The notes: generated by a model not told the origin, from the letters alone. A stretch of 64,000 nt of DNA from Parapedobacter sp. (GCF_035556095.1 NZ_DATMFT010000016.1:53508-117507), one strand, 5' to 3'. Positions 1 to 41,592 are shown, numbered from the stretch's first letter. Program-made: numbers and translations.

Positions 1-23
1 TCGACTGCGAGGCTCGATTGTAT

Positions 24-81
24 AAAAGTATTCAGTGAGTGCCAATCCGGCCTCACCCTATGGCTGTACAAGCAGCCTCAA
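24..81 (-). ncRNA. tracrRNA-like structured element, copy 1 of 3
   Basis: 58-nt element nearly identical to 1370..1427. On the minus strand it reads TTGAGGCTGCTTGTACAGCC-ATAGG-GTGAGGCCggattGGCaCTCAC-TGAATACTTTT, i.e. two hairpins plus a U-rich tail. It is followed (minus strand) by ATACAATC, then the window ends. Confidence 0.45.
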
Positions 82-145
82 ATAATGCTCCCAAATAGGT
101 TTGAAAAATTTGTGAATCGGAATCAATATTCATAAATTTGTTTCT

Positions 146-376
146 ATGGAATTAAATGTAAAATTAGGTTTCAATGAACTACTGTCTGCAATTAGAAGTT
201 TGCCGGATAGTCAATTGGCTTTACTGAAAAAGGAACTGGATAAACCAGTAACCTTAGCGGTTCAGCCAAATAAGGCTCTTAAAGAACTGTTGCTAAGCGG
301 GCCTGTTTTTGAAAAGGAACAACTTGCCTCTATTGCAGAAGCCCGAAAATCCATCAATCAAAGGCGGAATCCCTAA
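146..376 (+). CDS. small antitoxin-like protein (VapB-type partner of the PIN toxin)
   Basis: 76-aa ORF ending 5 nt before the PIN-domain ORF. The size and position are typical of a type II antitoxin. No motif was recognised directly. Confidence 0.5.
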   Translation: MELNVKLGFNELLSAIRSLPDSQLALLKKELDKPVTLAVQPNKALKELLLSGPVFEKEQLASIAEARKSINQRRNP

Positions 377-381
377 TCCTT

Positions 382-747
382 TTGGATACATCTATTCTTA
401 TTGATTATTTCCGGAAGAAAGACAAAACCAGAATCCGTCTATATGAATTAACCGATCATTACGAAGGGTTTGTTATTTCAGTTATCACTGAATTTGAGAT
501 TTACGTTGGTGCAAAAGATGACCAATTGCCGTTTTGGACACGTCTTTTAAAAGAGATTCCCGTGATTCCCCTTGATTCGTCAATTGCCGAAATTGCGGTA
601 GGCCTCAACAATCAATTGAAAGCATCCAAAAACCAAATTGCCATTGCAGACCTATTCATAGCCTCAACAGCGCTTTCTTTGGGAGTACCATGCGCTTCGC
701 TTAATCGCAAACATTTCAGCCGGTTAAAAGACCTCACTATCATTTAA
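382..747 (+). CDS. vapC: PIN-domain toxin, VapC family
   Basis: 121 aa. N-terminal xDTSILIDYF with a conserved Asp, TEFEIY with a Glu, and IAIADLFIASTA with an Asp give a PIN-like acidic residue pattern. TTG start as given in the ORF track. Confidence 0.75.
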   Translation: MDTSILIDYFRKKDKTRIRLYELTDHYEGFVISVITEFEIYVGAKDDQLPFWTRLLKEIPVIPLDSSIAEIAVGLNNQLKASKNQIAIADLFIASTALSLGVPCASLNRKHFSRLKDLTII

Positions 748-792
748 TGAACAACTCTTCCCTACCCTGAACAAGGTTAAAGACGGTACCCC

Positions 793-817
793 GTCTGATG
801 TCTGGCGTCTGATGTCT
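793..817. repeat. GTCTGAT-type heptad block 1, fused to a variant array repeat
   Basis: GTCTGAT GTCTGGC GTCTGAT GTCT with strict 7-nt period. It sits directly next to the variant repeat at 824..856. Confidence 0.7.
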
Positions 818-1033
818 AAAAAACATTATACCTTTCAGAATGGGGTCTGTAACACCAAGCTTTTTATAGGCTACAAAAGTATCAGTTGTATATACCTTTC
901 AGAATGTGGTCTGTAACACCGCCGAGGCAATTAGAATCCCGCTCCAGGTAGTTGTATATACCCAGCTGATAGGAACACTACCCAGTAGCCAGTTGTATAT
1001 ACCTTTCAAATGGCATAACTCGATCCGAGCCGC

Positions 1034-1065
1034 GTCTGATGTCTAGTGTCTGGCGTCTGATGTCT
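1034..1065. repeat. GTCTGAT-type heptad block 2
   Basis: GTCTGAT GTCTAGT GTCTGGC GTCTGAT GTCT. It is followed by the variant repeat at 1071..1103. Confidence 0.7.
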
Positions 1066-1239
1066 CAAAACACTATACCTTTCAAATTGGGGTAGTTAAC
1101 ACCCTCAGAAATTGTAGCCGCAAGACTCTTAGTGTTCTATATACCTTTCAAATTGGGGTCTGTAATACCTAAATAGAGCGACGCTTGACGTTTTTGTTGC
1201 ATGTACCTTTCCAAAATTGGGTGTCCACACCGCTCTTCT

Positions 1240-1270
1240 TCTGATGTCTAGTGTCTGACGTCTAATGTCT
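1240..1270. repeat. GTCTGAT-type heptad block 3
   Basis: TCTGAT GTCTAGT GTCTGAC GTCTAAT GTCT. It is followed by the variant partial repeat at 1276..1300. Confidence 0.65.
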
Positions 1271-1369
1271 CCAAACAATATACCTTTCAAATTCGGTAGC
1301 CAACAAAAAAATCCGCGCCCATCAACAAAATCCACGTCATCCGCATTCCAATAAGCTCGTAACAAATAA

Positions 1370-1427
1370 AAAAGTATTCAGTGAGTGCCAACCCGGCCTC
1401 ACCCTATGGCTGTACAAGCAGCCTCAA
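1370..1427 (-). ncRNA. tracrRNA-like structured element, copy 2 of 3
   Basis: Same 58-nt element as 24..81, with one loop difference. It separates the two parts of the repeat array. Confidence 0.5.
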
Positions 1428-1488
1428 TTATTAAATAACCTTTGTGCTCAATGATACCGTCTTACGGCTTTATAATTAATCTGGCGGG

Positions 1489-1747
1489 GTTGTATATATC
1501 TTTTTACTTTAGAAATTGCGTATGCCTTTCAAATTGGGGTCTGTAATACCACAATGCACTAAATCCAAAATACTTTATATGTTGTATATACCTTTCAAAT
1601 TTGAATCCGTAACACCTCCGCTCGTGACGATGTTGCGGTCGGATTAGCTGTATATACCTTCAAATTGAAATCTGTGACACCCTTTTGGCTATTCATATCA
1701 CAAACATCGCTGTTGTATATACCTTTCAAAAAGGGCTTTGGAACAAT
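1489..1747 (-). CRISPR. degenerate CRISPR-like array, proximal part (5 repeat units, about 4 guides)
   Basis: Repeat units at 1489-1500 (12 nt), 1518-1550, 1581-1616, 1648-1681 and 1712-1747 (only the GGTATATACAAC-side half is conserved). Spacers at 1459-1488 (putative), 1551-1580, 1617-1647 and 1682-1711. Further very degenerate units may lie at 1787-1858. Confidence 0.7.
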
Positions 1748-1871
1748 CGTTGACTTAATAAAAAACTCGCTTTCAACTGTATATCTTCCAGGATTAATGT
1801 CAATTTGATACCCGAAAGGTTGTAGATACTCCAGCCGAGAGACATCGTGTTGTGTATAAATCTTAAAATAA

Positions 1872-1930
1872 AAAAGTATTCAGTGAGTACTTTCTTAAGT
1901 CTCACCCTACGGCTGTACAAGCAGCCTCAA
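1872..1930 (-). ncRNA. tracrRNA-like structured element, copy 3 of 3 (nearest the Cas12f-like gene)
   Basis: Same flanks and hairpin 1 as copies 1 and 2. The inner stem of hairpin 2 changes from GCC/GGC to ACT/AGT, which is compensatory, and the single-nt bulge is kept. It lies 70 nt downstream of the Cas12f-like stop codon, between the gene and the array. Confidence 0.55.
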
Positions 1931-1950
1931 AAATTTCAAAGAACTATTTT

Positions 1951-1992
1951 AGTCGTAAGTCGTAAGTCATCAGTCGTAAGTCAACAGTCAAC
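1951..1992. repeat. AGTCGTA-type heptad block
   Basis: AGTCGTA AGTCGTA AGTCATC AGTCGTA AGTCAAC AGTCAAC: six 7-nt units. They start 8 nt past the stop codon of the minus-strand Cas12f-like gene. Confidence 0.7.
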
Positions 1993-1999
1993 TCGCCAC

Positions 2000-3094
2000 T
2001 TACTCCTCAATCACATTAATCCCCGCCTTCTTCGCCTTGTAGGCAATCTTTTCTTTCAACCCGTAGTAGCTCCAATTGCGGAGCAGGAACTCCTCCTCCT
2101 TCGCCACTTCTTCCTTTTGCTGCTGGTTCACCAATAGCAGCGTTCCCGCTTCGGACTTCAGGCACAGGTCGATCAGCCGCCTGCTGTACAGGTGCAGCCG
2201 GCTGTCCACATATTTCTTTTCCTTCGCATCCCAGTCGTCCAGGCTTTTCAGTTTGCGCTGGCGGCCCTTGCCAGACCGGTTGTACGTAGACCCCCGCTGC
2301 AGGCGGTGCCGTGCGGCCTGTATGGCCAGCCGCCGGTGCAGGAACTCCTCCTTGTTGCCGATCTGGAACTGTGCCTTGCCCACCTTCATCACGATGGGGT
2401 GTTCGATGGAGAGCGATGCCTCGGCGATGACCGAATCGTTCAGCTGATGCGCATCGCGCTCCATCTCAAAGGCCGCCAGTAAGTACAGCTTACCCTTGTC
2501 GATTTTCAGCGAACTGGCGCAGAGTTTCAACGTACCCGCGATGTTGCGCTGTATCAGCACGCGCTTGTCCGTTTTGTCCTTGCCGAGGTAGGTCTTGAAC
2601 GGGATTTTGAACAACGTAAACCGGAATTCGCGGTGCTTCTCGTCGGCCACGAATTTCAGCGACTTGCCCGAAAAGGGTAGCGGAATATTGCGCTTGTAGT
2701 TGCGCAGCGATTTCTCCCCCTTCCAGTAGGCGGTACGCTCGGTATTGTACACGCTGGTCAATGAATTATTCAGGTTGGAAAAAATTTCAGAAGGCATCTT
2801 ACCAAGCAGCTTACTGGACAGTACGCGGTAGGTGGTATTCATCCGCGAGGTGTTCAGGATGCCCTCCTCATCCTTGGCGCGGTCGGCCAGCTTCACCTTC
2901 ACCTCGTCGGTAAAGTAAATCAGATCTTTCACCCGATCCTGCACATACAGGTTCGTGAAAATGAGGTTGGCCGCCTGGAAAGCCAGGAACTGCCATTCAT
3001 ACAGCTGCTTGTAGTGGGCATCTTTTTGCGCTTTGTCTTCGCAATCCACATACACCTGTATTTTCCGCGTCAGGATGATGGTTTTCTTTTCCAT
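2000..3094 (-). CDS. miniature Cas12f-like protein, predicted nuclease-dead and C-terminally truncated (dCas12f-like)
   Basis: 364 aa. The segments TIILTRKIQVYV, NIPLPFSGKS..FKIPF, VIAEASLSIEHPIV, GTLLLVNQQQK and LLRNWSYYGLKEKIAYKAKKAGINVIEE are collinear with my recollection of Un1Cas12f1 (TITKTLKLRIV; NFPIPL..IKIPF; IIGGIDVGVKSPLV; GTVQMENLESM; RLRGFWPYAEMQNKIEFKLKQYGIEIRKV). The RuvC-I Asp and RuvC-II Glu positions are non-acidic. The ORF ends before the Zn-finger/RuvC-III region. It is adjacent to the repeat array and the tracr-like RNA. Confidence 0.75.
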   Translation of the reverse strand: MEKKTIILTRKIQVYVDCEDKAQKDAHYKQLYEWQFLAFQAANLIFTNLYVQDRVKDLIYFTDEVKVKLADRAKDEEGILNTSRMNTTYRVLSSKLLGKMPSEIFSNLNNSLTSVYNTERTAYWKGEKSLRNYKRNIPLPFSGKSLKFVADEKHREFRFTLFKIPFKTYLGKDKTDKRVLIQRNIAGTLKLCASSLKIDKGKLYLLAAFEMERDAHQLNDSVIAEASLSIEHPIVMKVGKAQFQIGNKEEFLHRRLAIQAARHRLQRGSTYNRSGKGRQRKLKSLDDWDAKEKKYVDSRLHLYSRRLIDLCLKSEAGTLLLVNQQQKEEVAKEEEFLLRNWSYYGLKEKIAYKAKKAGINVIEE

Positions 3095-3097
3095 GGT

Positions 3098-3916
3098 TTA
3101 GGCCGATTGTTTCGCTTTATTGATGACCGCATAGGCCTGCACGAAGAGCGACTTCACCCGTGTGTCGTCCAGTTGCAGCGCCGCGGCGATTTCCTCAAAG
3201 GAATACTGCAGGTCGTACCGCATGGCCAGCACCTGCGCCTGCTCTTCGGTGAGCATGCCTTCGGCGATGAGTGGTTTGGTGCGGGTGGCGCTATCCAACT
3301 TGGTCGTGTCCGCGAGGGCAGCTTTCAGGTTGGCAATGCATTGCTCCACGCGTTGGGCAACCTCGTAATCCGAGATGCCGCCGAGGTGGTAGGCTATCCG
3401 TTCGTAGTTAAAGCTGTACCGCAGGCACAGCCGAAGAAATAGCTGCTGCTGGTCGGTCAGGTTGGGCAACAGTCGGTTGACCTGCGCCAGCTGCCGTTGT
3501 TTTTCTGCTTCCAGTTGTTCGAGATATACGGCGTCCTCCTCGGCTTCGTCCTCCAGTTCGTTACCCAGCATAAATTCCTGGAAATCTTCGATGCCATCCA
3601 GCCGCAGCATGCTACGGTGGAAACGGTTGAGGCTCTTCCGGTAGTAGGCCATGCCCGCTTCGCGGAGTTGCTGGCCGAGGAACTCGTGCAGGTGGGCTAC
3701 ATCGCGTATGACGTCGCGCATGAGCCACAGGCGGAGAAATCCCTCCTGCGCAATGGTATTGCCCACCATATCGTCCTTAACGAACCGCTCGGCCCGCCAT
3801 GCGTAGTGGTCGTAATGGGCGCGATAGAAATAATTCAGTCCGGTTTCGTCGCCCGTCTTGAACCGATGGAATGCCTCGGTCGCATTTTTTCGTGTTTGGC
3901 GATTGGTTTTCAACAT
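3098..3916 (-). CDS. ECF-type sigma-70 family factor with an extra C-terminal sigma4-like HTH
   Basis: 272 aa. Region 2-like NTIAQEGFLRLWLMR. Region 4-like LTDQQQLFLRLCLRYSFNYERIAYHLGGISDYEVAQRVEQCIANLK. A second similar HTH reads LTEEQAQVLAMRYDLQYSFEEIAAALQLDDTRVKSLFVQA. The stop codon is 3 nt upstream of the Cas12f-like start. Confidence 0.8.
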   Translation of the reverse strand: MLKTNRQTRKNATEAFHRFKTGDETGLNYFYRAHYDHYAWRAERFVKDDMVGNTIAQEGFLRLWLMRDVIRDVAHLHEFLGQQLREAGMAYYRKSLNRFHRSMLRLDGIEDFQEFMLGNELEDEAEEDAVYLEQLEAEKQRQLAQVNRLLPNLTDQQQLFLRLCLRYSFNYERIAYHLGGISDYEVAQRVEQCIANLKAALADTTKLDSATRTKPLIAEGMLTEEQAQVLAMRYDLQYSFEEIAAALQLDDTRVKSLFVQAYAVINKAKQSA

Positions 3917-4227
3917 AATCCGGTTCTTGGTTTAAAAATTTTGAAATAGATATCTCCCTAACAACAATGAGTCGCTATTTAGGGACTTAGGCTATCCGCT
4001 GTCTCTGGGAGAACGTGGGATGTTGGCGTGGGCGGATGCTATTCGGGCGAGCACTTTACGGTGGCCAACAGGCTCCGGAAGTGACGGTGCGTTCTTGATG
4101 TGTAGTCTGGTTGCTTTTTCACGATCTTGTATAATTTGGTCCTCTTTGGTGAAACAAAGGTATGTGTTTTATTTTTATTAAACAAATATGTTTAGTGTGA
4201 ATTTCAAACATTTCCCTTGTTTGCCGA

Positions 4228-4452
4228 ATGGCAATAGATATTCAAACATTCAAAACCCAGTTGGGCCAGCGTATCCGGGTGCTTAGGGAACGCCGTGGAC
4301 TTACCCAGATGGAGCTTGGGGCATTGATGGATAAAGATTTCCAGGCAATCAGCCGGATGGAAAAGGGGCGGGTCAATCCGTCGGCTTATCAAGTGTATGT
4401 GCTGGCGGGAGCGCTCGGCGTGCCTATCGAGGAGTTTTTTGATATGAAGTAA
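4228..4452 (+). CDS. XRE-family helix-turn-helix transcriptional regulator
   Basis: 74 aa. LGQRIRVLRERRGLTQMELGALM...ISRMEKGRVNPS is a typical Cro/C1 HTH. It is divergent from the sigma/Cas12f-like operon. Confidence 0.8.
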   Translation: MAIDIQTFKTQLGQRIRVLRERRGLTQMELGALMDKDFQAISRMEKGRVNPSAYQVYVLAGALGVPIEEFFDMK

Positions 4453-4548
4453 ACCCATTTGCACCGTAACTAAATTTGGCGTACCTTTGCGGCCGTTAAT
4501 TATTTTTTTATTGTTTCATTAAGTTCACGCTTTAATATTATTCAAGTA

Positions 4549-4827
4549 ATGTATTTAAGTAAAGAGTACAAAACGGGCATTTTCGCTGAATTTGCAGGAA
4601 ATGCAACCAACACCGGTTCCGCGGAAGGACAGGTGGCGTTATTTACCAAACGTATTGCGCACCTCACGGAGCACCTGAAATCGAATCGCAAAGATTTCGC
4701 AACCCAGCGTTCATTGCAGAAGCTGGTCGGTAAACGCCGGGCGTTGTTGAAATACCTTTTCCATAAGGACATCGCACGCTACCGTGCCATCATCAAGGCA
4801 TTAGGTCTGCGCGACATCATCAAATAA
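4549..4827 (+). CDS. rpsO: 30S ribosomal protein S15
   Basis: 92 aa. TGSAEGQVALFTKRIAHLTEHLKSNRKDFATQRSL..LVGKRRALLKYL..DIARYRAIIKALGLR matches the S15 pattern. A TAaaTTTG box lies upstream near 4473. Confidence 0.9.
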   Translation: MYLSKEYKTGIFAEFAGNATNTGSAEGQVALFTKRIAHLTEHLKSNRKDFATQRSLQKLVGKRRALLKYLFHKDIARYRAIIKALGLRDIIK

Positions 4828-4850
4828 TTGCAAGTAGCGTTTTCAATAGA

Positions 4851-4883
4851 AAAGCCATCCGCCAACCAGCAGATGGCTTTTTT
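4851..4883 (+). terminator. intrinsic terminator after rpsO
   Basis: AAAGCCATC - 12-nt loop - GATGGCTTT followed by TTT. Confidence 0.7.
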
Positions 4884-5049
4884 GATGCCCAAGACAGCGC
4901 AGGTTATGTGACGAGACGTGTTACCTTTTGGGTTTATCAGGCATTTGCCAACGGGAAATTGCCACTTTTTCCATTCGAATGCAACGGCTAACTAGGTGTG
5001 GAGCCGGGGTCGCCGGTGTTGACATACACAAAAAAGTGACTCACTTCAA

Positions 5050-18739: not shown

Positions 18740-21700
18740 ATGAATTCTTATGTAGACCTTAAAGGCCGTACCCGACTGCCTTTGGTAAATCGGGTACTGC
18801 GTAATCTCGTAGTAACCACGGTGGCGGTAGTGGCAGCGATGCCCTACGTGTCGGCGGGAATGTTTAGCCCTGCTGATGTCACCTTACACCGACTGGAAAC
18901 GTCGGTACGGAAGCCCAACAGTATGTTGCAGGATACGGAGGTTCGCGGTACCATACGCGACTCGACAGGATCATTGCTTACCGGTGTATCCATTCACGTT
19001 AAAAACCGGACGTCTATCGGTACGACCACCGATCTCAACGGACGCTATTTATTGAGTGTTCCGGCTGGATCCACGCTGACGTTCTCAATGGTAGGGTTCG
19101 AGACCCAAGAGATAGCGGTGGGTAACCAAGAAGTCATCGATGTGGTGCTTGTCGAATCCTCATCCATGTTGGATGATGTGGTCGTGACCGCTTTTGGTGG
19201 CGCGGTAAAGCGCACGGACATGATCGGCGCCATTACGTCGGTTAAGCCCTCAGATCTCAAAGTGCCATCCAGTAACCTGACCACCGCTTTGGCGGGACGG
19301 GTTGCCGGTATGATTGCCTATCAACGAAGCGGCGAGCCAGGTATGGACAATGCGGATTTCTTTATCCGTGGTGTAACCACATTCGGTTATAAAAAAGACC
19401 CGCTGATCCTGATTGACAACCTCGAAGTGACCACCACGGAATTGGCCCGTCTTCAACCGGATGACGTAGCGAGTTTCTCGATCATGAAAGATGCCACTGC
19501 AACGGCGCTGTATGGTGCCCGGGGGGCCAATGGAGTCATCCTGATTACGACCAAAGAAGGTACCGAAGGGAAGGTGAAAATTAATGTGCGGCTGGAAAAC
19601 TCGATCTCGGCACCTACACGCAACGTGGAGCTGGCCGATCCCGTTACTTATATGGAGTTGCATAATGAAGCCGTGAAAACGCGGGATCCGTTGGGGGAAC
19701 AGCCTTATTCCCAAGGGAAGATAGATAACACAAAGGCCGGAACGAATGCGATAGCCTACCCAGCGACTGATTGGCGGAAAGAACTTTTCAAGGACTATAC
19801 CATGAACCAACGGTTCAACCTCAACCTTTCCGGCGGTGGGAGCGTTGCCCGTTACTACGTGGCTGGAGCGGTTACCAAAGATAATGGCGTATTACAGGTA
19901 GATCCGCGTAATAACTTCAATAGTAACATCGATCTGACGAGTTATAACCTTCGCTCGAACGTCAATGTTAACCTGACGAAATCCACCGAATTGATTATCA
20001 GGATGAATGGCAACTTTGACGATTACACCGGGCCGATAGCGGGGGGAAAAGCGATGTACCAAATGGTGATGCGTACCAATCCGGTTCTTTTTTCCGCCTT
20101 TTATCCACCGGGCGAAGATTATCAGCACGTTACCCATATCATGTTTGGAAATTATGAGGAAGGTAATTACCTGAATCCTTATGCGGAAATGGTGAAAGGG
20201 TACCGTGATTATTCACGCTCGTATGTACTGGCCCAGTTGGAGTTGAAACAAGACCTGGCTTTCCTCACCGAAGGCTTGCAATTCCGTGCGTTGATGAATA
20301 CGAACCGGACCTCGTTTTTTGATGTCAACAGAGCCTATTCGCCATTCTACTACTCGTTAAACGGTTATAACCGGCGTGCGGACACCTATAGCTTATCGCT
20401 CATCAATGAGGATGGTGGACGGGAATACCTCGACTATAATGAAGGGCCGAAGGAGGTGAGTTCTATCTTTTACCTGGAGTCTGCGTTGAGCTACAACCGG
20501 ACATTCGGCGAAAAACATGGTTTGAGCGGCATGTTGGTATACATCATGCAAGAGCGGCTGTCGGCCAACGCGGGGAGTCTGCAGCTCTCCCTCCCGTATC
20601 GGAATATAGGTTTGTCGGGTAGAACAACGTATGCATACGATAGCCGGTATTTCTTCGAGTTCAATTTCGGCTATAACGGATCCGAGCGGTTTTACAAAAA
20701 CAACCGTTTCGGCTTTTTCCCGTCTGCCGGGTTAGCATGGACGATTTCCAACGAAAAATTCTTTGAACCGATTACGTCGACGGTCAACAACCTGCGCGTA
20801 CGGGCCACTTACGGCTTGGTTGGTAACGATGCAATCGGGAGGCCGGAAGACCGGTTTTTCTATTTGTCGAATGTAGACATGGAGGCCGGTGGAGGCACGT
20901 TCGGCCGGGACAATGGCTATTCACGGTCGGGTGTTAACGTAACGCGGTACGCCAATTCGGACATCACTTGGGAGCAAGCCGAGAAGATGAATGTTGCTTT
21001 GGAAGTCGGACTGTTCAAGAAATTGGATATAACCGCAGATTTCTTTAAAGAACACCGGACCAATATCCTGATGGAACGGTCGCACATCCCATCAACTATG
21101 GGGCTTGGCACCGTCAATGTTATGGCCAATGTGGGTGAAGCCACAGGCCGGGGGGTCGATCTGTCGGCCAATTATTCGCATAGTTTTATCAATGGGTTGT
21201 GGCTTCAAGGAATGGGCAATTTCACGTTTGCGCAAAGTGCTTTTAAAGTATATGAGGAGCCGGAATATAGCGAGTCGTGGCAGTCGCGTGTTGGCTATTC
21301 CGTCAATCAGGAATGGGGCTACATTGCCGAGCGCTTATTTGTTGATGAGCATGAGGTGGCCAATTCGCCGAGGCAGAATTTCGGTGAGTATATGGCTGGC
21401 GATATCAAGTATCGTGACGTCAATCGGGATGGCCAGATTACCGAGTTGGATATGGTTCCCATTGGCTTTCCGACGATGCCCGAAATTGTATATGGATTTG
21501 GTCTTTCCGCAGGATGGAAGAACCTTGATTTCAGTGTGTTCTTCCAAGGCCTGGCTAGGGAGTCATTCCGGATCGGCGTTGCCCAAACGGCGCCTTTTCT
21601 CAGTCATCGATACAGTCCCTCCGAATTGCCGGGGATAACGCTTCAGAATCAGCTGCTCAAAGCGTATGCGGACGACCATTGGTCTGAAGACAACCGGAAC

Positions 21701-21994
21701 CTCTACGCATTGTGGCCCCGGTTAACTGCCACCACCAATACAAACAATACCCAACGCAGTACGTGGTTTCAGCGCGACGGCAGCTTCCTACGGTTGAAGC
21801 AGGCTGAAATCGGATATACGCTGCCCCAGGGCCTCACTGATCGGGTGTGGCTGAATAGCTTGCGTTTTTATGTGAGCGGGACGAACCTGCTATCGTGGAG
21901 TAAGTTTAAACTATGGGACGTGGAGATGGCGGACAATGGCTTGGGCTACCCCGTACAGCGCGTTGTCAATTTGGGTTTACATGTTTCATTATAA
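18740..21994 (+). CDS. SusC/RagA-family TonB-dependent outer-membrane transporter
   Basis: 1084 aa. Carboxypeptidase-regulatory-like VRGTIRDSTGSLLTGVSIHVKN, a plug (DATATALYGARGANGVILITTK), and a C-terminal beta-barrel ending in ..NLGLHVSL. Confidence 0.9.
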   Translation: MNSYVDLKGRTRLPLVNRVLRNLVVTTVAVVAAMPYVSAGMFSPADVTLHRLETSVRKPNSMLQDTEVRGTIRDSTGSLLTGVSIHVKNRTSIGTTTDLNGRYLLSVPAGSTLTFSMVGFETQEIAVGNQEVIDVVLVESSSMLDDVVVTAFGGAVKRTDMIGAITSVKPSDLKVPSSNLTTALAGRVAGMIAYQRSGEPGMDNADFFIRGVTTFGYKKDPLILIDNLEVTTTELARLQPDDVASFSIMKDATATALYGARGANGVILITTKEGTEGKVKINVRLENSISAPTRNVELADPVTYMELHNEAVKTRDPLGEQPYSQGKIDNTKAGTNAIAYPATDWRKELFKDYTMNQRFNLNLSGGGSVARYYVAGAVTKDNGVLQVDPRNNFNSNIDLTSYNLRSNVNVNLTKSTELIIRMNGNFDDYTGPIAGGKAMYQMVMRTNPVLFSAFYPPGEDYQHVTHIMFGNYEEGNYLNPYAEMVKGYRDYSRSYVLAQLELKQDLAFLTEGLQFRALMNTNRTSFFDVNRAYSPFYYSLNGYNRRADTYSLSLINEDGGREYLDYNEGPKEVSSIFYLESALSYNRTFGEKHGLSGMLVYIMQERLSANAGSLQLSLPYRNIGLSGRTTYAYDSRYFFEFNFGYNGSERFYKNNRFGFFPSAGLAWTISNEKFFEPITSTVNNLRVRATYGLVGNDAIGRPEDRFFYLSNVDMEAGGGTFGRDNGYSRSGVNVTRYANSDITWEQAEKMNVALEVGLFKKLDITADFFKEHRTNILMERSHIPSTMGLGTVNVMANVGEATGRGVDLSANYSHSFINGLWLQGMGNFTFAQSAFKVYEEPEYSESWQSRVGYSVNQEWGYIAERLFVDEHEVANSPRQNFGEYMAGDIKYRDVNRDGQITELDMVPIGFPTMPEIVYGFGLSAGWKNLDFSVFFQGLARESFRIGVAQTAPFLSHRYSPSELPGITLQNQLLKAYADDHWSEDNRNLYALWPRLTATTNTNNTQRSTWFQRDGSFLRLKQAEIGYTLPQGLTDRVWLNSLRFYVSGTNLLSWSKFKLWDVEMADNGLGYPVQRVVNLGLHVSL

Positions 21995-22006
21995 ATGGAG
22001 TAGATC

Positions 22007-23905
22007 ATGAAAGAAATTAAAAGAATAGGAATCGGTGTTTTATTGTTGTTGGGTATTTCCTGCAACAGCTACCTTGACGTGGTTCCTGATAACGTGGCAA
22101 CCGTGGATCATGCATTTAACATGCGCAATACCGCAGAAAAATATCTATTTACCTGTTATCGTTACCTCCCGTCACATGCGAGTTTAGGTGATAACCCTGC
22201 CTTTGCAACTGGCGACGAATTCTGGTTTTCCAATTCGTTTCTCCAGTTCCACTCGGCACCGGGATGGCAGATTGCCCGAGGTAACCAGAGCATTGTCTCC
22301 CCGATTTTAAACTATTGGGACGGCGTCAGTCAACCGTTCAAAGGTATCCGCGACTGCAATATCTTCATCGAAAATATTGGTAGGGTACCCGACATGCTGG
22401 ATGAAGAAAAGGACCGGTGGATTGCGGAGGCGAAGTTTTTAAAAGCCTATTATCATTTTTGGTTGATGCGGATGTATGGGCCGATTCCGATCATCCGCGA
22501 AAATCTGCCGATTTCCGCGTCGGTTCAAGAGGTCCGTGTGGCGCGGGAGCCGATCGACGATTGTGTGGCCTATATTGTGGAGCTGTTGGACGAAGCCGTA
22601 GTGAACCTGCCTGACGTCATTTCGGATGAATTGACAGAACTGGGACGTATTACGAAAACCATTGCCTTGTCGGTGAAAGCGAAAGTGTTGGTGACGGCAG
22701 CCAGTCCACTATTCAATGGAAATAACGAGTATGTAGGATTCGCTGGGCCCGACGGACGGGAGTTGTTCAACCAAACGTATTCGACCGATAAGTGGCAACA
22801 GGCAGCGGATGCCTGCCGGGAAGCGATCGATGCATGTCATGAGCTGGGTATGAAATTATACACGTTTGAGCTCGGCATCAGTCAGTTTTCGCCGTCGGAA
22901 GAGACCATCACCCAGATGAGTATACGGAATAGCGTAACGGAGCGATGGAATTCAGAGATTATTTGGGGCAATACAAATAGTACCGCTGTGGCTTTGCAGC
23001 GGCAAGCGACACCGCCGCTGGACCCTACAAACAGCGTAAATGCCAACACACTGGGAAATATGGCGCCGCCAATCAAAATCGCGGAGCAGTTCTATTCGAA
23101 AAACGGGGTGCCCATCGATGAAGATGTGACCTATGATTACGCAGGGCGTTTTGAATTGCGTGAGGCAGATGAAGCAGATAAGTATCATCTGCAAACGGGA
23201 TATACGACTGTTGGGCTCCATTTTGACCGCGAAGAGCGGTTTTATGCCAGCTTGGCGTTCGACGGCGGACTGTGGTATGGCCAGGGCCGATTAGATGATA
23301 ACGATCAGTGGACCATCCAGGCTAAATTGGGGCAAGCACAAACGCGTGTATCCAATAACCGTTTCTCCGTAACCGGATACTGGCCCAAAAAACTGGTTAA
23401 TTATGAAAACATCATCGGTGCGGGAAACACCTATACCGTCCAATACTACCCTTGGCCTGTAATGCGGCTGTCGGATTTGTATTTATTGTACGCCGAGGCA
23501 TTAAACGAACTGAATGAACAACCGAGCGACGAAACCTATGAATACTTAAATAAGGTTCGCGAGCGGGCGGGTTTGCCGACGGTCCAGGATGCATGGACAA
23601 ACTTCTCCAGACAGCCGGATAAATTCACCACACAGGTGGGGCTGCGGAGTATCATCCAGCAAGAGCGGCTGAACGAGCTGGCTTTTGAAGGGAAACGATT
23701 CTGGGACCTGAGGAGATGGAAACGTGCACATATCGAGTTGAATAACCTGATCACCGGTTGGGACATTGACCAAGAGAATCCGGAAACATACTATCGCCAA
23801 CGTGTATTATTCAACCAGACATTTATGATGCGTGATTATTTCTGGCCCATCCGGGAATCCAACCTGATTGTGAATCGGAATCTGGTGCAGAATCCGGGTT
23901 GGTAA
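22007..23905 (+). CDS. SusD/RagB-family nutrient-binding lipoprotein
   Basis: 632 aa. A lipobox (GISC) and the C-terminal ERLNELAFEGKRFWDLRRW...NPGW signature. Confidence 0.9.
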   Translation: MKEIKRIGIGVLLLLGISCNSYLDVVPDNVATVDHAFNMRNTAEKYLFTCYRYLPSHASLGDNPAFATGDEFWFSNSFLQFHSAPGWQIARGNQSIVSPILNYWDGVSQPFKGIRDCNIFIENIGRVPDMLDEEKDRWIAEAKFLKAYYHFWLMRMYGPIPIIRENLPISASVQEVRVAREPIDDCVAYIVELLDEAVVNLPDVISDELTELGRITKTIALSVKAKVLVTAASPLFNGNNEYVGFAGPDGRELFNQTYSTDKWQQAADACREAIDACHELGMKLYTFELGISQFSPSEETITQMSIRNSVTERWNSEIIWGNTNSTAVALQRQATPPLDPTNSVNANTLGNMAPPIKIAEQFYSKNGVPIDEDVTYDYAGRFELREADEADKYHLQTGYTTVGLHFDREERFYASLAFDGGLWYGQGRLDDNDQWTIQAKLGQAQTRVSNNRFSVTGYWPKKLVNYENIIGAGNTYTVQYYPWPVMRLSDLYLLYAEALNELNEQPSDETYEYLNKVRERAGLPTVQDAWTNFSRQPDKFTTQVGLRSIIQQERLNELAFEGKRFWDLRRWKRAHIELNNLITGWDIDQENPETYYRQRVLFNQTFMMRDYFWPIRESNLIVNRNLVQNPGW

Positions 23906-32122: not shown

Positions 32123-32599
32123 ATGGAAACTTCAATGGAAAAATACAAAGGTATCCACCCAGGATTGATTTTAGAGCATGAGCTTAAAAAGAGGAAAATT
32201 GCAAAGAATCAATTTGCGACTGCTATTAACCAGCATAGGCAGACCTTGAACGCTATAACTAAGGGAAGAAGAAAACTACCGGTCGAACTATCATTCAAAA
32301 TTGACAAGGAATTAGGCTATGCAGAAGGAACTATGTTGATGATGCAAACCTATTTCGAAATTGAAGATTACCGGAAAAAACAACGGCTGACCAAAACCAG
32401 CTTTGCGTTGGGTAAATTGCGTAATGGACTTTTTTGGGATACGGACATCAGCAAAATAGATCCAGATATACACGCCACTGCAATTATCCGAAGAGTCTTT
32501 GAGCGCGGTAACGCGGAAGAAAAAGAATATATCACCGATTACTACGGAGACAGACGGATAGCTGAGGTATTGGGTACAGACTCAATTGTTGCCAGCTAA
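32123..32599 (+). CDS. HigA-like XRE-HTH antitoxin/regulator with C-terminal extension
   Basis: 158 aa. IHPGLILEHELKKRKIAKNQFATAINQHRQTLNAITKGRRKLPVELSFKIDKELG is a HigA-type HTH. It overlaps the downstream gene region. Confidence 0.65.
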   Translation: METSMEKYKGIHPGLILEHELKKRKIAKNQFATAINQHRQTLNAITKGRRKLPVELSFKIDKELGYAEGTMLMMQTYFEIEDYRKKQRLTKTSFALGKLRNGLFWDTDISKIDPDIHATAIIRRVFERGNAEEKEYITDYYGDRRIAEVLGTDSIVAS

Positions 32600-32609
32600 A
32601 TCAAACAAT

Positions 32610-33257
32610 ATGCTGTATTGGAACACCGTCGGCGACCTGTTACGCCAAGCCCTGCTCACCTTGATGCAAGCTCCGATATTTGCAGATTTTAGACTCGTGG
32701 GAGGCACGGCGCTCAGTCTGCACCTGGGCCATCGCATGTCTGTTGATATTGATCTATTTACGGATGCTAATCATGGTAGCGTTGATTTTGATGCAGTAGA
32801 CCAATACTTGCTGAATACTTTTCCATTCGTACAAGGGGACATAGGTGGCTTACCCGGTTTTGGCCGAGCATACTTAATCGGCAATAGTCTGGAGGATCAC
32901 ATCAAATTGGATGTGTACTACTCACAGGAAAAGTTCATAAGACCGACAGTTGAGTATGATGATATAAGGCTTGCCGGTATAGAGGAGATCATTGCGATGA
33001 AAGTAGATGTTATTTCCAGAAGTGGGAGAAAAAAGGATTTTTGGGATTTACATGAGTTAATGGAACGATATAATCTTTCTCAAATGCTCACATTGCATGA
33101 GGAACGTCATCCCTATACTCATGACAAAACTCAAATTATTTCAAATTTCGAGAACTTTGAAAGGGCTGATCAGGATTTTGATCCGATCTGTCTAAGGGGA
33201 AAATATTGGGAATTTATCAAAGACGATATGATCGAAGCAGTAAAGCAATATAGATGA
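32610..33257 (+). CDS. nucleotidyltransferase, AbiEii/AbiGii toxin family (DUF1814-like)
   Basis: FRLVGGTALSLHLGHRMSVDIDLF is the NTase GS..D.D motif typical of this family. ATG at 32610 within the TTG-started track ORF. Confidence 0.65.
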   Translation: MLYWNTVGDLLRQALLTLMQAPIFADFRLVGGTALSLHLGHRMSVDIDLFTDANHGSVDFDAVDQYLLNTFPFVQGDIGGLPGFGRAYLIGNSLEDHIKLDVYYSQEKFIRPTVEYDDIRLAGIEEIIAMKVDVISRSGRKKDFWDLHELMERYNLSQMLTLHEERHPYTHDKTQIISNFENFERADQDFDPICLRGKYWEFIKDDMIEAVKQYR

Positions 33258-36685: not shown

Positions 36686-39600
36686 ATGAAGCTAACCGCT
36701 ATTTTATTGCTATTTTTTACATTTAAGGTAAGTGCGGATTGTTGCGCTATGAGTGCAATAGTCGGTGTGCCTTCAAGTTATGACCCTCCTGGCAATCCAA
36801 TACCTCCTATTCAAATAAAAGGAAAGGTTGTGGATAGTGAAGGGAATCCGCTACAGGGTGTGTCTGTAAACGTGGTAGGTACTACGGTAGGAAGCACCAC
36901 CAATAGTGAGGGATTTTATGTCATCAGTATCGTGGATAATTCGTCTGTTGTACTGGAGTTTTCCAGCGTAGGATTTCAACGAAAAAGTGTGACAGTTGGA
37001 ACCCAAACGGAGATCAATGTTACGCTGGAAGAAGATGTCGCGGGGCTGGAAGAGGTTGTGGTGGTGGGATATGGGACACAGAAGAAGTTAACGGTTACGG
37101 GTGCGATTTCGTCTGTAGGGTCGGCGGATCTGATCAAATCTCCAAATGCTAGTGTTGCGAATACGCTTGCCGGACGCGTTACCGGTTTGGCAACGGTACA
37201 GTATTCAGGTCGTCCAGGAGGCGACGATCCTATAACTTATATCCGCGGAATCGGATCACTTACGTCAGCGGCTTCAGCACCGCTTACACTTGTAGATGGG
37301 GTAGAACGGCCGTTTACCCAATTAGACCCCAATGAAATTGAGTCGGTATCTGTATTGAAAGATGCGTCTGCTACCGCCGTGTTCGGTGTGCGGGGAGCCA
37401 ATGGAGTAATCATCGTGACAACGAAGCGGGGAACCGAAGGGCCTGCCAAAATCAGCGTATCGGCTTCTGCTGGCCTTCAACAGCCATTGAGACTTCCTGT
37501 TTTTGTAGACAGCTATACGCATGCAAAGATGTATACAGAAGCTCAACAAAATGACGATCCGAATGCAGTACTGAAGTTCAGCCCAGAGGCCCTGGAAGCA
37601 TTCCGGACCAACTCGGATCCGATCATTTATCCAAATACCGATTGGGTGAATTATATATTGAAGCCTTCCGCATTTCAAACGCAAGAAAATGTCAATATTT
37701 CGGGCGGAACAAAGGCGGTCAGGTATTTTGTTTCACTGGGGTATCTCAAGCAAGACGGCCTGTTTAGGATATTTGACCTGCCGGATAATAATAACTACAG
37801 TTATAACCGATATAACTACCGGGTAAATTTGGATATCGATGTAACTAAAACGACTACCCTTTCCTTAACAACCGGCGGAAGAAGTGAGTTTCGTAACGAG
37901 CCCTTGGCCGATGAGCCGCAATTCAGTATCTGGCGGAATATCTATTTTGCCCAGCCTTATAGAGGAATAGGGATTGTAGACGGAAAGCATATACAAAGCG
38001 ATCCCCGCTATATTTCAGGTGAAACACGTGATGCGCTTAACGGTTACTATGGGAAGGGTTTCCAAAATGCACTCACGAATCCGCTCAATTTTGACTTGAT
38101 GTTAAATCAGCAGCTGGACGCCCTCGTAAAGGGGCTTTCCTTCAAAGTTAAAGGTTCTTATAACGGAAGCTACTCTTTTACCAAAATCAGAAACTCCAGT
38201 CGGGCAACGTACTTGGCCAGCTATTTACATGATTTAGATCCTACCGAACCGGATGATAAAACGGTTGTCTACCGGAAAATCGGGGAAGATGGGACATTAG
38301 GTTATGCCGAGCGTTACGACAAAGCCCGGGATTGGTATTTCGAAACGGCTTTTTCTTATGACCGAATGTTTGAGGCACACCGCGTCACCGGACTCTTGCT
38401 TTACAATCAGAGCAAAACGTTTTATCCGACGTCGAATGTGGATATCCCACGGGGATACGTTGGGCTTGTAGGACGGATAACCTACGACTATCAATCAAAG
38501 TATCTGCTGGATTTAAATATGGGGTATAACGGTTCCGAAAATTTTGCTCCTGAAAGGCGATTTGGATTATTTCCAGCCATATCAGCAGGCTGGGTGGTTT
38601 CCGAAGAGAAATTTATGAAAGCGTATGCTCCGTTTATTGAGTACCTGAAAATAAGGGGTTCATACGGAGTTGTGGGTAATGATCGGATGGGGAATAGCCG
38701 GTTCCTTTATTTACCGGACAGTTATTCGGCGAATTCGGGTGGCTATAGTTTCGGGGTCAATGTTCCCCAGAATCAGATCGGCGCATCGGAAGGCAAGGTT
38801 GGAAATCCGCTCGTCACATGGGAAAAGTCGAAGAAAAAGGACATTGGCCTGGATCTTACGATGCTGAATGGGAAAATTGCCGTCGTGGCGGATTATTTCA
38901 CTGAACATCGCGATAATATCCTTACGACACGTCAGACGGTTCCCGGCATTCTGGCTATTAACCTTCCAGCAGTAAATATCGGCGTCGTTGACAATCATGG
39001 GTATGAATTACAAATAAAGTGGAGGGATAACATCGGTGCCTTTAACTACATGATTAGCCCGAATATGTCCTTCGCTAGAAACAAAATTGTTTTTATGGAT
39101 GAGACACCGCAGCGGGAATCGTACCTTTTGCGCACGGGAAATCGCGTCAACCAACCATTCGGCTATGTGTTTGATGGCTTTTGGACCGAAACAGATGTGG
39201 CTAATATCGGCAATTTCCCAAATGCAAATTACGAGGCCAAACCGGGGGATTTACGGTATAAAGATCTGAATGGCGATGGGCAGATAAATGTTGATGACCA
39301 GCGACCAATTGGCTTTCCGGACTATCCTGAATATGTTTTTGGATTAACGATCGAAATGCAGTATAAGGGATTTGATTTGCATATGATGTGGTCTGGAGCA
39401 ACCAACGTATCAAGGGCATTTCAAGGGTCGTTCCAATTGCCGTTTGGGCCTACACATGGGTTCGGGCTTATGAAGTACATGGCCGATGGGCGGTGGACTC
39501 CGGAAACGGCTGCCTCGGCAACGTATCCGCGGATGACTTTCTTGGGAATCGAGAACAACATGAAATATAGTGATTATTGGTTGAAGGACGCTTCGTATGC

Positions 39601-39817
39601 AAGATTGAAAAACGTTGAACTCGGATACAGTTTTGATGCTGCCAAGCATATTTTGTTAAAGCGGCTCGGCATGTCGAGTTTACGTCTTTATGCCAATGGT
39701 TATAACCTGTTGACTTTTGACAATCTAGGACTCATAGACCCGGAATCTGTACCAACGGAAAATGCACAGTATCCGCTGATGAGAATATTCAATTTTGGTT
39801 TAAACGTAACATTCTAA
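36686..39817 (+). CDS. SusC/RagA-family TonB-dependent transporter
   Basis: 1043 aa. IKGKVVDSEGNPLQGVSVNVVGT, DASATAVFGVRGANGVIIVTTKRG, and a C-terminal barrel ending in FGLNVTF. Confidence 0.9.
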   Translation: MKLTAILLLFFTFKVSADCCAMSAIVGVPSSYDPPGNPIPPIQIKGKVVDSEGNPLQGVSVNVVGTTVGSTTNSEGFYVISIVDNSSVVLEFSSVGFQRKSVTVGTQTEINVTLEEDVAGLEEVVVVGYGTQKKLTVTGAISSVGSADLIKSPNASVANTLAGRVTGLATVQYSGRPGGDDPITYIRGIGSLTSAASAPLTLVDGVERPFTQLDPNEIESVSVLKDASATAVFGVRGANGVIIVTTKRGTEGPAKISVSASAGLQQPLRLPVFVDSYTHAKMYTEAQQNDDPNAVLKFSPEALEAFRTNSDPIIYPNTDWVNYILKPSAFQTQENVNISGGTKAVRYFVSLGYLKQDGLFRIFDLPDNNNYSYNRYNYRVNLDIDVTKTTTLSLTTGGRSEFRNEPLADEPQFSIWRNIYFAQPYRGIGIVDGKHIQSDPRYISGETRDALNGYYGKGFQNALTNPLNFDLMLNQQLDALVKGLSFKVKGSYNGSYSFTKIRNSSRATYLASYLHDLDPTEPDDKTVVYRKIGEDGTLGYAERYDKARDWYFETAFSYDRMFEAHRVTGLLLYNQSKTFYPTSNVDIPRGYVGLVGRITYDYQSKYLLDLNMGYNGSENFAPERRFGLFPAISAGWVVSEEKFMKAYAPFIEYLKIRGSYGVVGNDRMGNSRFLYLPDSYSANSGGYSFGVNVPQNQIGASEGKVGNPLVTWEKSKKKDIGLDLTMLNGKIAVVADYFTEHRDNILTTRQTVPGILAINLPAVNIGVVDNHGYELQIKWRDNIGAFNYMISPNMSFARNKIVFMDETPQRESYLLRTGNRVNQPFGYVFDGFWTETDVANIGNFPNANYEAKPGDLRYKDLNGDGQINVDDQRPIGFPDYPEYVFGLTIEMQYKGFDLHMMWSGATNVSRAFQGSFQLPFGPTHGFGLMKYMADGRWTPETAASATYPRMTFLGIENNMKYSDYWLKDASYARLKNVELGYSFDAAKHILLKRLGMSSLRLYANGYNLLTFDNLGLIDPESVPTENAQYPLMRIFNFGLNVTF

Positions 39818-39837
39818 CATCATAAAATTTCAAGGTG

Positions 39838-41592
39838 ATGAAAAATATACTAATTATCTTTTTATGGCTACTGGCTTTCGCCATAGTGGGATGTGAGAAA
39901 TTTAAAGTAGGTAACGACTTTCTTGAAAAACCACCCAGTGTGGATGTGACGAAGGATACCATTTTCTCTAACCTCGAATATGCTAACCGGTTTCTAACCG
40001 GAGCCTATGCAACGCTACACTATGGGTTATTGTATGATTTTTCGGCCAAAGGGATTGGTATGGATGCGGATATCTTAGAGTCGCTTACTGACATTACGCA
40101 ATCTTTCCGGTTGGATGGCGCTGTGTACCGTATTTATTATTCAGGGCAATACAGTGCGGGAACAGAAAATAACGCAACCGGTACCAAATATAGTTTTTTG
40201 CATGAAGATAGCTGGAAAGGCATCCGAATGGCTTACATTTTTCTGGAGAATATCGACCGTGTTCCCAACGTAAATGAGCAAACCAAGAAGCGGCTGAAAG
40301 CAGAAGCAAAAATGATTATAGCAATGCATTATGCTGATATGTATCGCCATTTCGGTGGACTCCCTTGGATTGATCACGCCATTGGAGTCAATGAAGACAC
40401 TCATTTTCCACGGCTTACAAGCTTAGCCACAATGGATTCGATTATTAACATCATCGATGAGGCAACGCCTGATTTACCGTGGGTGCTAAACGATATCAAT
40501 AATGACGATGGCCGTTTTACACAAGCTTCTGCGCTTGGTCTGAAAGCGCGTATGCTGCTTTTTGGTGCAAGTCCGCTGTTTAATAGCGATACACCATATC
40601 TCGACGGAGAAGCGTCGCAACAAAAGATGACTTGGCATGGGAATTATGACCAGAATCTGTGGAAGCGGGCGGCCAATGCGGCAGAAGAACTGATTCAGAA
40701 AGTGGAAGCCCAGGGAGGGTATGAATTAGTCAAAACCGGCCATCCGAGACAGGATTTCCAGAAGGCTTACTATCAACGGGGAAATGGTGAAATTTTGATT
40801 TCCACCAGGGTGCGATATCGAAATGAAGGCGACTACGACTACCTGGGTATGCAGGTAACGCGTATTCACGGTATAGGCTGTCCCACACAAGAATATGTGA
40901 ATATGTTCGGTATGGCCAATGGATTGCCGATTTCCGATCCGAATTCGGGATATGTGGAAGAGAATCCCTTTGTCAACCGCGATCCGAGGTTATATGAAAC
41001 GGTGCTTACGAATGAAGATACGTACCAAGGGCGTACGGCACAGTTGTGGGTTGGCGGGATCGAGCGTCAATCCATCGGACAATCGATGGCAGCGACAGGC
41101 TACGACATGCGGAAATTCTTATTGGATTTTAATAGTGCTACGTCGTTTGGTTCTGTTGTGCAATTTCCTTACCTCCGCTTGGCTGAAATCTATTTGACGT
41201 ATGCGGAAGCGAGTAACCAATTAAACAACGGACCTACTCCAGAAGCCTATCGCTGTGTCAACGTTGTACGGAATCGGGTAGGACTTCCGGATTTGACTCC
41301 GAATCTGAATAAAGAACAATTTCACGAAGCGGTATTGATCGAACGCGCATGCGAATTTGGGTATGAGGAGGTTAGGTGGTTTGATCTGATCCGTTGGAAA
41401 AGGGCAGATGATTTCACGAAAAAACTGCATGGAATGAATATTTTTAAAGAAGGTGACGAATTTACGTATCAATTATTTGAACTACCTACACGGGCTTGGC
41501 AACGGTCTTGGTCGCCTAAATGGTATTTGAGTGCCTTCCCCCCAACGGAGGTAAATAAAGGTTATGGATTAGTTCAAAACCCTGGCTGGTGA
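39838..41592 (+). CDS. SusD/RagB-family lipoprotein
   Basis: Lipobox (IVGC). The C-terminus reads ERACEFGYEEVRWFDLIRW...NPGW. Confidence 0.9.
   Translation: MKNILIIFLWLLAFAIVGCEKFKVGNDFLEKPPSVDVTKDTIFSNLEYANRFLTGAYATLHYGLLYDFSAKGIGMDADILESLTDITQSFRLDGAVYRIYYSGQYSAGTENNATGTKYSFLHEDSWKGIRMAYIFLENIDRVPNVNEQTKKRLKAEAKMIIAMHYADMYRHFGGLPWIDHAIGVNEDTHFPRLTSLATMDSIINIIDEATPDLPWVLNDINNDDGRFTQASALGLKARMLLFGASPLFNSDTPYLDGEASQQKMTWHGNYDQNLWKRAANAAEELIQKVEAQGGYELVKTGHPRQDFQKAYYQRGNGEILISTRVRYRNEGDYDYLGMQVTRIHGIGCPTQEYVNMFGMANGLPISDPNSGYVEENPFVNRDPRLYETVLTNEDTYQGRTAQLWVGGIERQSIGQSMAATGYDMRKFLLDFNSATSFGSVVQFPYLRLAEIYLTYAEASNQLNNGPTPEAYRCVNVVRNRVGLPDLTPNLNKEQFHEAVLIERACEFGYEEVRWFDLIRWKRADDFTKKLHGMNIFKEGDEFTYQLFELPTRAWQRSWSPKWYLSAFPPTEVNKGYGLVQNPGW

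Follow-up and report, generated by a model that had tools for sequence, protein, structure and literature searches.

The 272-residue protein encoded by rpoE very probably serves an RNA-guided transcription module (rpoE-dcas12f-gRNA) as its sigma subunit, acting by the mechanism set out below, and it is an ordinary, Parapedobacter-like member of the already known family of dCas12f-associated ECF sigma factors. This assignment draws on its domain architecture, homology to a solved complex, interface residues, gene linkage, the nuclease-dead state of its neighbour, structured guide RNA (gRNA) scaffolds and purifying selection. In the case of physical docking, stoichiometry and promoter-independent initiation, the behaviour of this orthologue is expected by analogy with Flagellimonas taeanensis. 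The system as a whole amounts to a CRISPRa-like mechanism found in nature, with an RNA guide in place of promoter recognition; it was predicted in 2023 and demonstrated by cryo-EM and functional assays in 2025–2026. The window, i.e., the whole 64-kb stretch of DNA analysed (64,000 nucleotides), contributes one further uncharacterised orthologue and no new principle. Coordinates are collected in Table 1.

Table 1. Features of the rpoE-dcas12f locus, numbered from the first nucleotide of the window.
Feature	Position	Strand	Basis and remarks
rpoE, dCas12f-associated ECF sigma factor (sigmaE), 272 aa	3098..3916	-	ORF with ATG start; stop codon included in coordinates
sigma2 domain, predicted RNAP core binder, aa ~20-100	3617..3859	-	TIGR02937 and TIGR02985 alignments
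Acidic sigma2/sigma4 linker, aa 118-140, leading into long helix	3497..3565	-	Composition, AF2 model
sigma4 domain, diverged HTH with invariant GGISDYEV motif, aa ~140-204	3305..3499	-	sigma4 part of TIGR02937/TIGR02985
C-terminal domain (CTD), sigma4-like HTH, predicted dCas12f RuvC-docking module, aa ~205-272	3101..3304	-	Pfam, profile, model
dcas12f, nuclease-dead, C-terminally truncated Cas12f, 364 aa	2000..3094	-	Starts 3 nt after rpoE stop
hth, divergent Xre-type HTH protein, 74 aa	4228..4452	+	Pfam HTH_3, E 8.5e-12
hth-rpoE intergenic region, candidate 'hth-associated ncRNA'	3917..4227	.	Alignment with three Parapedobacter loci (L001-L003)
Guide RNA 1	1835..1928	-	Scaffold 1849-1928 ending ...ATACACAAC, then 14-nt guide ACGATGTCTCTCGG (1835-1848)
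Guide-RNA-like copy 2	1322..1425	-	Same 5' scaffold, different 3' part (...GGAATGCGGATGAC); guide boundary uncertain; repeat families D6/D7
Guide RNA 3	3..79	-	Compact scaffold 17-79 ending ...TTATACAAT, then guide CGAGCCTCGCAGTC (3-16); k-mer match to copies 1 and 2
Degenerate CRISPR-like array	816..1751	-	About 12-14 units, ~36-nt repeat (GGTGTTACAGACCCCAATTTGAAAGGTATATACAAC), spacing 62-66 nt; repeat families D1-D3

The sole significant sequence match of the sigma factor in the PDB is 9n9q_C, the 'RpoE' of the cryo-EM 'RNA-guided transcription complex' of F. taeanensis (E 7.5e-37, aa 16-266). The same chain is the best fold match of the full-length AF2 model, and the fold matches that follow are ECF sigma factors. 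Identity to the solved homologues is about 40% for the sigma factor and about 60% for dCas12f. Hoffmann et al. (bioRxiv 2025; Nature 2026, PMC13472631) and Xiao et al. 2025 (PMC12259091) established the function and structure of the system, and a physical sigmaE-dCas12f-RNAP complex and guide-dependent, promoter-independent transcription are known for F. taeanensis and related systems. In F. taeanensis, the CTD of sigmaE uses F225 and F243, with R218 and H240, to bind the truncated RuvC domain of dCas12f, and the third helix of the CTD touches protein, not DNA (PMC12259091). The sigma4 domain contacts only the minor groove of the DNA, and the start site is set by distance from the R-loop (PMC12259091; PMC12259090/PMC13472631). 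L137 and I184 of sigma4 contact the dCas12f lid, L137 being functionally the most important sigma4 contact (PMC12259091).

The long sigma ORF claimed in the original prediction is present on the minus strand, with all the peptides quoted from it. Its claimed sigma2-like core is borne out by NCBIfam TIGR02937 (sigma70-ECF), which scores 49.9 bits over aa 27-201 (cut-off 42.9), and the Bacteroidetes ECF model TIGR02985 aligns over the same span, so that the first 200 residues constitute a complete two-domain ECF sigma factor (sigma2, linker, sigma4). The sigma2 domain is modelled with pLDDT 84-95 and aligns without gaps to residues 6-107 of 9n9q_C; Pfam Sigma70_r2 does not match this domain taken alone. 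The linker is acidic as predicted, 10 of the 23 residues at aa 118-140 being Asp or Glu. In the AF2 model, aa 118-127 are disordered with low pLDDT and are followed by a helix at aa 129-152, and together these elements equate to the sigma2/4 linker and elongated helix described for F. taeanensis sigmaE (PMC12259091), where Y105 corresponds to the invariant F115 of the present protein. The acidic linker is here five residues longer.

The domain in sigma4 position (aa 140-206) is diverged. Pfam Sigma70_r4 scores it at 13 bits, below the cut-off, and it aligns to the sigma4 of 9n9q_C; an alignment of 38 homologues has invariant columns at G179-V186. The two lid contacts of F. taeanensis fall on N152, which is variable and lies beside the conserved L153 (for L137; the register near P151 is uncertain), and on A200 (for I184). 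The sigma4-lid interface is thus not obviously conserved and may differ from that of F. taeanensis.

The extra CTD carries the clearest region-4 signature of the protein. At aa ~221-261 it is matched by Pfam Sigma70_r4 with 29.8-36.3 bits (cut-off 24.1) and by Sigma70_r4_2 with 31.6-31.9 bits (cut-off 25.7), and these above-cut-off matches sit on the CTD, not on the domain in sigma4 position. The HMM domain annotation proposed in the original prediction thus recovered r4 and r4_2 on the CTD, and failed to recover r2 on sigma2 or r4 above threshold on sigma4. A structure model of aa 205-272 (pLDDT 78) has 9n9q_C as its first structural neighbour, followed by -35-binding sigma4 domains, including those of SigD (3vep; TM 0.82, rmsd 1.7 Å), SigL (3hug), E. 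coli sigmaE region 4 (2h27) and others. Since HMM and fold agree, the second region-4-like HTH is confirmed, and the C-terminal segment is HTH-like. In the texts consulted on dCas12f-sigmaE the CTD is termed 'unique' or 'HTH-like', and a description as a sigma-70 region-4-type domain was not found there; the explicit assignment by HMM and fold is a small addition.

The CTD also resembles its counterpart in the solved complex. Its profile alone matches residues 198-255 of 9n9q_C (E 4.4e-14), and its model superposes on the CTD of that chain at 0.7 Å over 49 columns with 49% identity. Three of the four residues that contact RuvC in F. taeanensis are identical, R233, F240 and F258 corresponding to R218, F225 and F243, while H240 is replaced by K255. 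All 38 aligned homologues have F240 and F258, and nearly all have R233.

The original prediction spoke of a duplicated HTH. This stands as far as the fold is concerned, both domains being of sigma4 type, and holds only weakly at the level of sequence. BLASTP of the sigma4 HTH against the CTD HTH finds no similarity, and hhalign of the two sub-profiles gives a weak in-register match (P about 1e-3, 28 columns), so that a recent internal tandem duplication is not supported. The region-4 signature of the CTD (about 30 bits) exceeds that of the domain in sigma4 position, and this lies behind an unlikely evolutionary reading, in which the docking CTD would be a true sigma4 paralogue and the family would have arisen through duplication or accretion of sigma4, with one copy recruited as an adaptor between proteins to complete the truncated RuvC and the other released from -35 reading. 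In a bolder extension of the paralogue reading, the undocked CTD may still bind DNA; if it does, the sigma factor would gain a second, dCas12f-independent mode.

The gene directly downstream encodes a Cas12f that is dead as a nuclease. It matches PDB 9n9c_A ('Nuclease-deactivated Cas12f') over aa 2-362 (E 4e-128). In the alignment to active Cas12f (9nzo_B), the RuvC-I Asp is replaced by Ser227, the RuvC-II Glu falls inside a deletion, and the protein ends ahead of RuvC-III and the zinc finger. The NCBIfam model guided_TnpB scores 56 bits, below its cut-off.

Homologues of the sigma factor are long as a rule: nearly all of the 120 listed from a large protein collection have 261-304 aa, and the few shorter ones resemble fragments. 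Their sources are Parapedobacter, Olivibacter, Sphingobacterium and relatives; among the matches listed, a Parapedobacter protein is nearest, at 91% identity. Linkage was counted in one representative genome per species, which gave 80 loci with a sigma homologue (L001-L080). In 78 of them a dCas12f homologue lies directly downstream of the sigma gene, typically after a gap of 6-20 nt. The long form thus goes closely together with Cas12f-like genes and is not an ordinary ECF group separate from them; as the C-terminal segment is also HTH-like, neither of the two refuting conditions named in the original prediction holds. The two exceptions, in Sphingobacterium paludis (L072) and S. deserti (L077), encode CTD-bearing sigma factors of 40-42% identity without an adjacent dCas12f. 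In these loci (L072, 5980-8050; L077, 5965-8141) the sigma gene is followed after ~180-230 nt by a gene for a 360-aa secreted KSDYYQ-repeat protein, which has no Pfam or NCBIfam family, and MacB/FtsX-type ABC transporter genes flank; no nuclease-like partner was recognisable in either. This partner context differs from the RE-like one in the literature. Throughout L001-L080, dCas12f is more conserved than the sigma factor (97% vs. 93% in L001, ~62% vs. ~50% in Sphingobacterium).

These data bear on the view that rpoE encodes a conventional ECF sigma factor reading its own -35/-10 promoters, with the CTD as an extra DNA-binding element or autoregulatory extension (compare ECF groups with C-terminal regulatory domains) and an unrelated Cas12f-like neighbour. 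A CTD that passes the Pfam cut-offs of a DNA-binding fold and the two Sphingobacterium sigma factors that have the CTD but no adjacent dCas12f would suit such a protein. It is nevertheless very unlikely, given the close linkage in the other 78 genomes and a solved homologue whose CTD uses its third helix for protein contact, with the matching F240 and F258 invariant. In F. taeanensis, moreover, guide-dependent transcription requires the cognate sigma factor and is supported by no other (PMC12259091). The extension matches sigma-70 region 4/HTH models only, and no SnoaL-like, TPR or similar non-HTH regulatory extension of the ECF41/42 type was detected in it.

Under the RNA-guided mechanism, sigma2 would bind the RNAP core, and the acidic linker with the long helix would bridge the gap between sigma2 and sigma4. 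Reading of a -35 box would be dispensable for the diverged sigma4, which would sit among the beta flap-tip helix, the dCas12f lid and the DNA minor groove. The CTD, with its sigma4-type fold, would plug into and complete the truncated RuvC of the nuclease-dead Cas12f. A dCas12f dimer would take up one guide RNA encoded next to it and form an R-loop at the matching genomic site, and the docked sigma-RNAP would initiate downstream of the TAM, at a distance of about 45-48 bp and independently of -35/-10 motifs. The suggestion in the original prediction that the extra domain is a Cas12f docking module, with tethering in place of -35 recognition, is supported by the published F. taeanensis mechanism, clear homology, the conserved interface and the linkage. 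As it matches what has been published (Altae-Tran 2023; Hoffmann 2026; Xiao 2025), it is a correct reading of a known system and carries no novelty. Counted against the RNA-guided assignment are the sigma identity of only about 40%, the change of H240 to Lys, the L137 and I184 contacts, which are not obviously conserved, the lack of a convincing target in the window and the two loci of 80 without dCas12f.

Several known systems can be compared. The nearest is F. taeanensis sigmaE (9n9q_C; PMC12259091, PMC13472631), which has the same order of sigma2, long-helix linker, sigma4 and ~65-aa CTD (a 261-residue PDB chain vs. 272 aa here), and likewise is operonic with a truncated dead Cas12f of ~365 aa and accompanied by same-strand single-guide RNA(s) and a nearby Xre HTH gene, with no anti-sigma gene. 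The CTD contacts R, F and F are kept, whereas the present protein has Lys for H240, Asn for L137 and Ala for I184; the window locus has three scaffold copies and a degenerate CRISPR-like array, compared with one gRNA in F. taeanensis. The 'Sigma-TnpB' clade (Altae-Tran et al. 2023, PNAS, PMC10691335) also combines an RpoE bearing an 'HTH-like domain' with an inactivated Cas12f-derived protein, and that domain was predicted to stand in for the missing zinc finger and RuvC-III. The clade shares its occurrence in Bacteroidota including Sphingobacteriales, the Xre gene nearby, conserved non-coding DNA between Xre and RpoE, and guide arrays that are irregular. That work is purely a bioinformatic prediction, and it does not connect the extra domain with models of sigma-70 region 4.

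Canonical ECF sigma factors (E. coli sigmaE, 1or7/2h27/6jbq; M. tuberculosis SigL, 6dv9; SigD sigma4, 3vep) share the sigma2 and sigma4 folds, and their sigma4 domains superpose on the present CTD at TM 0.7-0.8. They have about 160-190 aa, a single sigma4, a paired anti-sigma factor and -35/-10 promoters, whereas the protein described here has a further sigma4-like domain and a Cas12f partner, and its gene has no anti-sigma neighbour. TldRs (TnpB-like nuclease-dead repressors, PMC10705468) are likewise dead RNA-guided nucleases domesticated for transcriptional control. They repress by blocking transcription and have no sigma partner, in contrast to the present system, which is predicted to activate via recruitment of sigma-RNAP.

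Three gRNA scaffolds lie on the gene strand downstream of dcas12f, starting at 1928, 1425 and 79 and having the core GAGGCTGCTTGTACAGCCRTAGGGTGAG in common. Guide RNA 3 is at the very left edge of the window, and the locus may therefore extend past it. The 81 sequences (the 80 loci and the window) contain the scaffold core GAGGCTGCTTGTACAGCCGTAGGGTGAG 155 times, always on the gene strand, and 71 of them have it. Many loci keep it at 96-100% identity, even in genera with proteins only 50-60% identical to those of the window. In the two 5' scaffold helices, 10 of 14 pairs show compensatory changes, and 87% of cells are paired vs. 31-52% in slid controls; the three scaffolds are accordingly predicted to be structured; single-sequence folding of gRNA-1 against shuffles was non-significant (z = -1.3), and the structural support comes from the covariation. 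The length of gRNA-1 fits the 85-105 nt of published gRNAs (PMC12259090). Copy 2 lacks the canonical ...ATACAAC end, and its variant is conserved in Parapedobacter sp. 2B3 (L001). The scaffolds lie downstream of dcas12f in Parapedobacter and Pedobacter and mostly upstream of rpoE in Sphingobacterium (61 downstream vs. 84 upstream copies).

The array between the full-length scaffolds has unique spacers and degenerate, irregular repeats. These end GGTATATACAAC, the ...ATACAAC 3' end being common to repeat and gRNA scaffold, and no cas1 or cas2 was found among window ORFs near the array. Comparable 'rudimentary arrays' and a Sphingobacterium locus were described in PMC12259090, and irregular guide arrays in PMC10691335. 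The co-occurrence of fused guide RNAs and a residual CRISPR-like array in one locus fits the proposed evolutionary route and is another small addition. A tracrRNA:crRNA dual-guide mode found no support, RNAcofold of scaffold copies with the CRISPR-like repeat giving pairing no better than shuffles. Short 7-nt-periodic tracts (GACATCA/GACGCCA/GACACTA...; 787-843, 1035-1091 and 1240-1296) follow three repeat-like units, and a similar tandem of AGTCGTAAGTC occurs at 1951-1983, directly after the dcas12f stop codon. Guide RNA 3 is separated from the array by a two-gene module (146-747, +) of an unannotated 76-aa ORF and a PIN-domain toxin.

A decaying relic, in which a dead Cas12f and a degenerate CRISPR array persist beside a sigma factor that no longer works with dCas12f, might present such irregular repeats, a guide copy with an altered end and no guide target within the 64-kb window. 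This is very unlikely. Both ORFs are intact, and dN/dS relative to Parapedobacter orthologues is 0.10-0.13 for the whole of rpoE and 0.035-0.145 for the CTD, low values which place the CTD under purifying selection. Also dCas12f is 91-97% identical across most Parapedobacter loci, and the scaffold core is kept in many loci across genera. Nuclease death and truncation define the working family (PMC12259090/PMC13472631; PMC10691335).

The surroundings of rpoE agree with published loci. Besides dCas12f they comprise the HTH_3 protein, rpsO (S15), an MFS transporter, an AraC regulator and a PIN toxin pair. As stated in the original prediction, no anti-sigma gene is adjacent, none (including FecR-type) being found among the neighbours within about 3 kb. 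Orthologues of hth are 81-88% identical and occupy the same position in three Parapedobacter loci (L001-L003), and dCas12f-sigma loci typically have an HTH/Xre gene as their third gene (PMC12259090/PMC13472631; PMC10691335). In the same three genomes, the hth-rpoE intergenic region is well conserved over the ~200 nt next to hth and not over the ~100 nt next to rpoE; the literature describes conserved non-coding sequence or an ncRNA between hth/Xre and rpoE (PMC12259090; PMC10691335). An Rfam scan of 1-5000 gave no family for the guide RNAs or this intergenic region, the only match being a sub-threshold ribosomal S15 leader (4491-4605, +; 21.9 bits vs. gathering score 39.5), which begins shortly before rpsO (4549-4827) and reaches into the first codons of that gene.

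Targets were sought as guide matches that have a 5' TAM and lie ahead of genes (susCD, two-component systems, rpoE itself). Twelve candidate guides or spacers were compared with the 64-kb window (14-20 nt, 2-4 mismatches; k=12 exact words; intergenic-only scan), and all matches were at chance level; none lay in the intergenic regions upstream of the two susCD pairs of the window. A match of guide 1 at 3996-4009 (+) was rejected, having three mismatches, some of them in the seed, and no 5'-G. Published targets are usually elsewhere in the genome (PMC12259090). The SusC/SusD pairs (polysaccharide utilisation loci) are at 18740-23905 and 36686-41592, with GH92 and a GntR regulator beside the second, and an AbiEii toxin with an HTH/DUF6922 partner is at 32123-33257. 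Two of the 80 loci (L040, L069) have guides that are similar across genera (e.g., ATGTGGGGTTTGCTG, ATTTGGGGTCTGCTG, ATGTGGGCGTTGCTG) and differ from those of the window; this likeness suggests a target site conserved across genera.
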